DNA from: Escherichia coli
Lineage (GTDB): Bacteria > Pseudomonadota > Gammaproteobacteria > Enterobacterales > Enterobacteriaceae
DNA length: 1,000 nucleotides
Assembly (NCBI RefSeq): GCF_003334765.1
Contig: NZ_QOWT01000091.1
Strand: one strand, 5' to 3'
Position numbers and translations under genes: made by a program. The notes beneath the pieces were generated by a model. That model made no database searches and was not told the DNA's origin. It saw only the letters and a list, made by a program, of their open reading frames with translations. This document shows positions 1 to 1,000 of this stretch, piece by piece. The first letter of the stretch is position 1. Each line of letters starts with the position of its first letter.

Positions 1-1000
1 TCATTGCTGCCATTCATCGCGAATACAAGCAGACATGGAAAACACTGGATGACGAACTGGCCTACGCTCTCTGGCCTGGTGATGTGGATGCCGGAAACAT
101 TGACGGCAGCATCCATCGCTGGGCAAAAAATGAAGTTATCGACAACGACCGCGAAGACTGGAAGCGTATCTCGGCATCAATGCGCAAACAGCCTGATGCC
201 CTTCGCTACGACCGCCAGACTATTTTTGGCCTTGTCCGTGAACGTCCGATCGACATTCACAAAGACCCTGTGGCACTGAACAAATACATTACTGAATACC
301 TGACTACAAAGGGCGTGTTTGAAGATGAAGGAACAAATCAGAGCGCAACTGATACTCTCTCGTCGCCAGTACCAGAAACTGATGCAGTGGAAACGGCAAT
401 TCCGGACAACGAAAAAACCGAATGCAAAGTGGAAGTCGAACCATCTGTAGAACGTGAGGGGCCGTTCTACTTCCTCTTCACCGACAAGGATGGCGAAAAA
501 TACGGTCGCGCAAACAAACTTTCTGGTCTGGATAAGGCGCTGTCTGCTGGGGCTACTGAAATCACGAAAGAAGAATATTTCGCCCGCAAAAACGGTACAT
601 ACTCAGGTTCACAACAAAATACTGGTGCATCTGACACGACCGCACAACCAGGGTCAGTAAAAGTTACCGCTGACGAAGTAAACAAAATTATGCAGGCAGC
701 CAATATCAGCCAGCCTGACGCCGATGAACTGCTTGCAGTATCACGTGGTGAATTTGTTGAAGGGATTAGCGACCCGAATGATCCGAAATGGGTTAAGGGG
801 AACCAGACCCGCGATTCTGTGAACCAGAACCAGCAAGAAACGGAACAGAACGACCAGAAAGCGGAACAAAACAGCCCAAATGCGTTACAAAACGAGCCAG
901 AAACGAAACAGCCTGAATCAGTGGCGCAACAGGAAGTGGAAAAAGTCTGCACCGCCTGCGGTCAGACCGGCGGCGGCAACTGCCCTGATTGTGGCGCGGT
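1..1000 (+). CDS. recE: Internal fragment of a long CDS, partial at both ends (first complete codon at 3, last at 996..998); likely RecE-family exodeoxyribonuclease VIII of a Rac-like prophage, non-catalytic central region
   Basis: Hand translation of the frame starting at position 3 gives 332 consecutive sense codons with no stop, while the other two + frames are interrupted. Codon usage is typical of enterobacteria (GAA, AAA, CTG, CGC, GGC, CAG) and the + strand is purine-rich. The translated segments LLAVSRGEFVEGISDPNDPKWVKG (726..800) and KVCTACGQTGGGNCPDCGA (942..998) match my recollection of RecE. Confidence that this is coding is about 0.9; confidence in the RecE assignment is about 0.6 because it is memory-based and unverified. 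Confidence 0.8.
948..992 (+). other. Cys4 motif CxxC-x7-CxxC (C-TA-C-GQTGGGN-C-PD-C), putative zinc-ribbon or zinc-knuckle within the same CDS
   Basis: Read directly from the in-frame translation: Cys codons at 948..950, 957..959, 981..983 and 990..992, with a Gly-rich spacer between the two CxxC pairs. This spacing is characteristic of zinc knuckles. The window ends 8 nt after the fourth Cys, so the downstream context is not visible. Confidence 0.5.

Follow-up and report, generated by a model that had tools for sequence, protein, structure and literature searches.

The closest described relative of the sequence analysed here is RecE (exodeoxyribonuclease VIII) of the Rac prophage. [quoted passage not shown] A 2025 survey of lambdoid recombination modules describes DnaQ-like 3'-5' nucleases and RecE-like proteins that lack the usual nuclease domain (PMC12315714). 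Just upstream of the RecE nuclease domain, in the part of undefined role that is dispensable for the core nuclease (564-866; PMC11611040), lies a cassette with the succession GEFVxGISDPNDPKWVKG, a run of heptads, CxxCGQTGGxNCPDCG and an acidic tail ending in ETGE. The same cassette, at high identity, is present in the Escherichia coli prophage exonuclease considered here, where it is conserved over residues ~474-621 (GEFVEGISDPNDPKWVKG, the repeats, CxxCGQTGGxNCPDCG and the acidic tail ending in ETGE), and direct comparison recovered it in both K-12-type RecE (residues 453-587) and Rac-SA53 RecE. The heptad number differs between these proteins, with 5 units (35 aa) in K-12-type RecE, 6 (42 aa) in Rac-SA53 RecE and 7 in the exonuclease; 5 units were also counted in NCCP 13963. 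What comes after the cassette differs: in RecE it is the PD-(D/E)XK 5'-3' nuclease domain, in the present protein an Rv2179c-like DEDDh 3'-5' exonuclease domain.

In 1989 Wootton and Drummond reportedly described Q-linkers as Gln/Glu/Ser/Pro/Arg-rich interdomain tethers of bacterial multidomain proteins. The segment encoded by the heptads resembles them in being hydrophilic and Q/E/P-rich, in lying between folded modules and in varying in length and sequence among homologs; it differs from them in its size (49 aa as against ~15-25 aa), in being N-rich and in being made up of 21-nt tandem repeats whose alleles differ in copy number. This organization is reminiscent of the coding minisatellites or VNTRs of bacteria and phages (e.g. 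MLVA loci), with which it shares a head-to-tail arrangement of units divisible by three in length, a copy number that varies in frame and hybrid units at the junctions. However, compared with typical MLVA loci the units are diverged (~56% self-identity at lag 21) and a single length accounts for 88% of sequences; given the divergence of its units, the array is probably far less unstable than such loci. Another lambdoid parallel is provided by the origin iterons of phage lambda, which are tandem repeats with a period of ~20 nt in the linker-coding part of gene O. The two have in common ~20-nt tandem repeats in the part of a lambdoid phage gene that codes for an interdomain linker, but the array described here is devoid of dyad symmetry and of an AT-rich flank, varies in copy number and belongs to a gene that is not for replication.

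The prophage exonuclease gene and its RecE-type cassette

The window, i.e. the whole stretch of 1,000 nucleotides analysed, has a 100% match, with annotation, in E. coli 118UI (NZ_CP032515.1). Its frame-3 translation is stop-free and internal to an 823-aa CDS annotated as 'exonuclease', window position w starting residue (w+705)/3. The gene resides in a lambdoid, Rac-like prophage whose integration site adjoins ompW, with dicB and ydfC upstream and xis and int downstream. An AlphaFold2 model of the full protein, built on an alignment of 146 sequences, has a mean pLDDT of 77 and supplies the confidence values given with the following features:

Window 3..1000, + strand: internal part of the exonuclease CDS (residues 236-568 of the 823-aa WP_113344110.1, L001:5298-7769)
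Window 669-797, + strand: two-helix segment ending in DPNDPKWVKG (residues 458-499; helices 458-467 and 475-482; pLDDT 61-79)
Window 771..800, + strand: anchor DPNDPKWVKG (residues 492-501), immediately before the repeats and found in 117 of the 120 homologous clusters listed
Window 801..947, + strand: degenerate tandem array of seven 21-nt units encoding a 49-aa Q/N/E/P-rich linker (residues 502-550)
Window 821..880, + strand: T-free run of 60 nt (A31 C16 G13), spanning units 2-4, which are the most alike and the nearest to the T-free consensus
Window 948..995, + strand: CxxC-x8-CxxC zinc-ribbon-like motif CTACGQTGGGNCPDCG (residues 551-566; pLDDT ~65), just downstream of the repeats
Window 467..952, - strand: antisense ORF of 161 aa, a chance ORF that is not part of the repeat feature

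The sole Pfam domain of the protein is the C-terminal Rv2179c-like DEDDh 3'-5' exonuclease (PF16473, residues 642-813, E = 3.4e-67), which resembles T4 DexA, RNase T and oligoribonuclease (Orn) in sequence and fold, as judged from a PDB sequence search and Foldseek. The former search matched residues 643-776 only and recovered no solved structure over the linker, the latter, run with the full model against the PDB, matched only the C-terminal DEDDh domain, and Pfam, NCBIfam and PHROGs contained no linker-specific family. A match to DUF4072 at residues 464-491 was disregarded (E = 0.44). Against the RecE equivalog model NF007259 of NCBIfam the protein scored 273.7 bits, well short of the cut-off of 1269, with a match limited to residues 246-625 against model positions 271-602. 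Designation of the whole protein as RecE/exodeoxyribonuclease VIII was rejected on account of this sub-threshold score and of a C-terminus that is a DEDDh rather than a PD-(D/E)XK 5'-3' nuclease. The gene is a chimera, in which a RecE-type N-terminal and middle region that includes the cassette is joined, directly after the ETGE motif, to an Rv2179c-like DEDDh 3'-5' exonuclease that replaces the PD-(D/E)XK 5'-3' nuclease. No recT-like gene follows it, its place being taken by xis and int.

The zinc-ribbon-like motif is kept both in the E. coli DEDDh exonuclease alleles and in RecE, and it may bind metal. Next come a conserved AVMGDATYQETF and, after this, a second acidic, disordered and indel-rich segment (residues 567-636).

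Window-like sequences were detected by megablast in 4,459 of the 5,426 complete E. coli genomes, and a 260-nt query covering the linker region, used in a more sensitive mode, raised this to 4,731 of 5,426 (~87%), with up to 9 places per genome and 10,021 places overall. Many database matches to the window start abruptly at query position 656 or 750, the recE of Rac-SA53 being among those starting at 750; these points look like mosaic recombination boundaries at which the shared cassette begins. In the Qin prophage region of the K-12 derivative E. coli XL1-Blue (L002:2798-3565) only a truncated exonuclease pseudogene is found, the window match stopping at position 64, and in that record rrf and tRNA-Asp follow directly. 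The database proteins of the exonuclease family mostly carry the label 'partial' and begin at the end of a contig, even where the contig measures hundreds of kb, apparently because the up to 9 gene copies per genome break short-read assemblies at these points.

Organization and base composition of the 21-nt array

The initial annotation had drawn attention to a T-poor stretch (residues 502-549 of the exonuclease) coding for a Q/N/E-rich linker with short codon repeats. Its counts, i.e. no T in 821-880 and 11 T in the 145 nt of 801-945, are exact (the whole window has 18.2% T), its translation of the linker is the same as the frame-3 translation, the tandem AACCAGAACCAG is present at 822-833, and the 12-mers that it termed near-identical, ACGGAACAGAAC (840-851) and GCGGAACAAAAC (861-872), differ at 2 of 12 positions. 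What had been read as scattered short repeats is, however, a tandem array of seven 21-nt units; the two 12-mers are offset by exactly 21 nt and hence represent the same part of successive units. The units, with the heptads that they encode, are:

Unit 1, 801-821: NQTRDSV
Unit 2, 822-842: NQNQQET
Unit 3, 843-863: EQNDQKA
Unit 4, 864-884: EQNSPNA
Unit 5, 885-905: LQNEPET
Unit 6, 906-926: KQPESVA
Unit 7, 927-947: QQEVEKV

TRF assigned the array a period of 21, and a repeat search recovered copies 21 and 42 nt apart. Its self-identity at lags of 21, 42 and 63 nt is 0.56, 0.50 and 0.52, as against 0.34 +/- 0.04 in codon shuffles, 0 of 5000 of which reached the observed value. The consensus unit derived from 41 units in ten alleles, AAACAGAACGAGCCAGAAGCG (KQNEPEA), is T-free. 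Within the heptad, Q at position 2 and N at position 3 are conserved at 79-99% across units and alleles, with Q2 nearly invariant. We consider it highly probable that window 801-947 is a coding minisatellite, comprised of seven diverged head-to-tail 21-nt copies that encode a disordered spacer of variable copy number; the head-to-tail periodic units and the whole-unit copy-number polymorphism that distinguish coding tandem repeats (minisatellites/VNTRs) are both observed. A literature search recovered no description of the 21-nt repeat and none of its use as a typing locus; recE and VNTR do appear in PMC6760104, in unrelated contexts only.

The longest T-free run in the window other than the 60-nt run measures 27 nt. 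When the window was shuffled 20,000 times by mononucleotide and 20,000 times by codon, T-free runs of at least 60 nt arose in 15 and 23 of the shuffles, respectively, which yields p ~1e-3 for the T-free run. The residues of the linker are mainly Q (11), E (8) and N (7), followed by K, A, P, T and D, none of which needs a T at codon position 1 or 2. At third positions T makes up 8% in the linker versus 27% in the remainder of the gene. Over the 49 linker codons there are 12 T, where the amino acids would lead one to expect 16.6 (P = 0.05). With the peptide fixed and the synonymous usage of the gene applied, the 20 codons of 822-881 would be free of T with a probability of 0.003; this is a model probability for a codon span that extends beyond the T-free run by one base, the T at 881. 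Every allele is T-poor (7-13%), and the longest T-free run ranges from 20 to 77 nt among alleles, which makes the 60-nt run a peculiarity of this allele rather than a conserved feature. Most of the T depletion is explained by amino-acid composition, and the remainder fits an amplified T-free founder unit. Descent of the array from such a unit would leave third positions that are mostly G, A or C, and would account for the compositional oddity as a by-product of the amplification of a T-free codon unit.

Copy-number alleles of the linker

Alleles were collected by a word-indexed search with residues 381-640, which listed 120 clusters (90% identity), almost all of them from E. coli. Linker length was taken from DPNDPKWVKG to the first CxxC, and both anchors could be located in 110 clusters. 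The allele counts therefore refer to protein clusters, of which many represent partial proteins of draft assemblies, and are not a complete-genome census; a spread sample of complete genomes (best place per record) favours same-length alleles and was left out of the allele frequencies. The distribution of linker lengths over the 110 clusters is as follows:

21 aa: 1 cluster
24 aa: 3 clusters
28 aa: 1 cluster
35 aa: 4 clusters
42 aa: 14 clusters
48 aa: 1 cluster
49 aa: 85 clusters
56 aa: 1 cluster

The suspicion that this segment might be a hotspot of in-frame indels among homologs has been borne out: the length polymorphism, from 21 to 56 aa, is in frame and falls exactly here, and the alignment of homologs did not show a structured segment of fixed length. 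While 25 of the 110 clusters depart from the modal 49 aa, 106 of the 110 have lengths of 21, 28, 35, 42, 49 or 56 aa, the exceptions being those of 24 and 48 aa. By member sequences the 49-aa form amounts to 88% and the 42-aa form to 11.5%. At least 8 of the ~10 distinct types of indel junction are multiples of 7 aa, an excess with a chance of ~6e-6 if each in-frame indel had a probability of 1/7 of being such a multiple. Two types of indel do not correspond to whole units: one deletes 25 aa between two GCGGAA (Ala-Glu) microhomologies, the other duplicates 13 aa.

The DNA of ten alleles tiles perfectly in rows of 21 nt. In P0062 units 3 and 4 are fused at a shared GAACARAAC (GAACAGAAC followed by AGCCCAAATGCG), and P0040 has an additional hybrid unit, GAACAAAACAGCCAGAAAGCG; these hybrid units mark the DNA junctions of copy-number change. 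When P0040 and P0062 are compared with the 49-aa alleles P0092 and P0044, the one-unit change is the sole difference, which identifies these as recent events. Among E. coli alleles of equal length the pairwise identity is 0.85 in the linker, as against 0.87 in the upstream and 0.76 in the downstream flank. With linker identity so near to that of the flanks, the segment varies at the depth of E. coli in length rather than in sequence. The value of 0.85 may reflect constraint on the linker sequence or simply recent common ancestry, and the dominance of the 49-aa form (88% of member sequences) may similarly reflect selection on length or just clonal sampling.

The lengths and junctions suggest a route wherein misalignment between 21-nt units, by replication slippage or unequal recombination, would result in the gain or loss of whole heptads in frame and so give rise to alleles with 3 to 8 units. 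The spacer, placed between the helical segment and the zinc ribbon of the RecE-type region, would most likely act as a flexible tether alone, its exact length being only weakly constrained. The array is an ordinary coding minisatellite and spacer, and copy-number differences between strains are usual for such spacers.

Three alleles in the sample are CxxC[NS] variants or contain frameshifted sequence. P0082 apparently leaves the frame within the repeat array and returns to it before the zinc ribbon, whereas P0163 apparently shifts frame just after the zinc ribbon; these two could be either pseudogenes or sequencing errors.

Predicted disorder of the spacer and alternative readings

In the AlphaFold2 model residues 500-548 have pLDDT values below 50 (30-43) and lack DSSP elements, a segment that coincides almost exactly with the repeat array; block means over residues 501-550 are 33, 30, 33, 35 and 43. 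The mean normalised hydropathy of the linker (0.279) lies well below the charge-hydropathy disorder boundary of 0.457, the net charge is -6, and 65% of its residues are disorder-promoting. The linker is situated between folded modules, namely the helices at 458-482 and DPNDPKW upstream and the zinc ribbon (551-566) and exonuclease domain (640-823) downstream. These predictions favour the flexible, disordered linker proposed in the initial annotation, and the array is thereby predicted to encode an acidic, Q/N/E/P-rich, intrinsically disordered spacer of 49 residues. In the remainder of the model, confident domains cover residues 1-205, 240-344, 385-437 and 640-823 (the last with pLDDT above 90), the two helices at 458-482 and the zinc ribbon at 551-566 are of moderate confidence, and further stretches with pLDDT below 50 are found at 345-384, 438-456 and 567-636. 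The first two of these correspond to window 330-449 and 609-665, and between them sits the small confident beta/alpha domain of residues 385-437 (GPFYFLFTDKDGEKYGR...), which K-12-type RecE lacks, as a gap in the alignment of the two shows.

A heptad period could in principle denote a regular fold (e.g. coiled coil, single alpha-helix or repeat solenoid), and the exact spacing of 7 residues and the richness in E, Q and K would agree with this. It is nevertheless very improbable: the consensus K-Q-N-E-P-E-A offers no hydrophobic residues at positions of the a/d type, each array contains three to six prolines (here in units 4-6), AlphaFold2 predicts no helix and assigns pLDDT below 50, and copy number is not conserved. 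Neither the hydrophobic a/d positions nor the predicted helix typical of coiled-coil heptads is thus observed, and the lack of such positions together with the prolines excludes a coiled coil. More can be said for heptads that function as short linear motifs, either as a multivalent binding platform or as a length 'ruler' set by copy number, the unit number for instance tuning the cooperation of the N-terminal RecE-type module with the zinc ribbon and nuclease in end-to-end recombination. The strong conservation of Q2 and N3 (79-99% across units and alleles), a linker identity as high as that of the flanking domains, the retention of the cassette before two unrelated nuclease domains and the enhancement of linear-linear recombination by the part of RecE that precedes the nuclease domain (PMC11611040, citing Fu et al. 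2012) are all in keeping with such a role. Yet alleles of 3 to 8 units occur, the segment is absent or unalignable in homologs from other genera, a binding partner is not known, and the conservation is explicable by recent unit duplication combined with the shallow divergence of E. coli prophages; we therefore regard motif function as unlikely. A shade less likely still is the specific notion of the array as a tunable element, whose unit number (3-8) would determine how far, or with what valency, the RecE-type N-terminal module connects to the zinc ribbon plus nuclease. If true, recombination or end-processing would be modulated and the copy-number alleles would differ functionally, which might help to explain why linear-linear recombination is promoted by full-length RecE but not by its nuclease domain on its own.

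Alternatively, the repeats might act at the level of DNA or RNA, as iteron-like protein-binding sites, as a structured RNA or as part of a real antisense gene that the T-free strand would protect. In favour of this, the 21-nt spacing approximates two helical turns of DNA, the origin iterons of lambda likewise lie in the interdomain linker of a gene, and the 161-aa antisense ORF overlaps the repeat segment. However, 780-960 contains no inverted repeats or dyad symmetry, in the absence of which the iteron idea was dropped; moreover, GC is ~0.5 with no AT-rich region found alongside, copy number (3-8) and unit sequence vary among alleles, and the replication genes are ~5 kb from the array and on the opposite strand. 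Hence dyad-symmetric units, an AT-rich neighbour and a conserved copy number, the hallmarks of iteron-type origins, are all wanting. RNA folding of 801-947 gave no sign of structure (z = -0.29), and no Rfam match rose above chance, the only hit at a permissive threshold being Hrs13 (E = 0.67, minus strand, 411-510). The longest antisense stop-free run (window 470-961, 164 codons) is no longer than in the codon-shuffled gene (158 +/- 39 codons, P = 0.38) and thus needs no special explanation; an antisense gene was ruled out by this test. The initial annotation had explained the antisense ORF by the absence of T: it is logically correct that a plus strand without T cannot carry a minus-strand stop (nor a stop on its own strand), but the T-free part covers only 60 of the ~490 nt of the ORF. 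A role of the repeats as DNA or RNA elements accordingly has very little probability.

On the preferred reading of the array as a coding minisatellite encoding a tether, in-frame length variation is to be expected at this position when RecE-like prophage exonucleases are annotated or aligned, and designers of RecE truncations or fusions for recombineering would find in the linker a natural boundary that tolerates changes in length. In practical terms these consequences are small, and a new biological question would emerge only if unit number affects activity.

In homologs from other genera the segment is unalignable and of different length, often without a zinc ribbon. In a set of these (P0134-P0162) the linker preceding the nuclease is free of both heptads and zinc ribbon and instead displays the short conserved motifs GGGxFSI[ED]GL and NVQMEE, which may be short linear interaction motifs.
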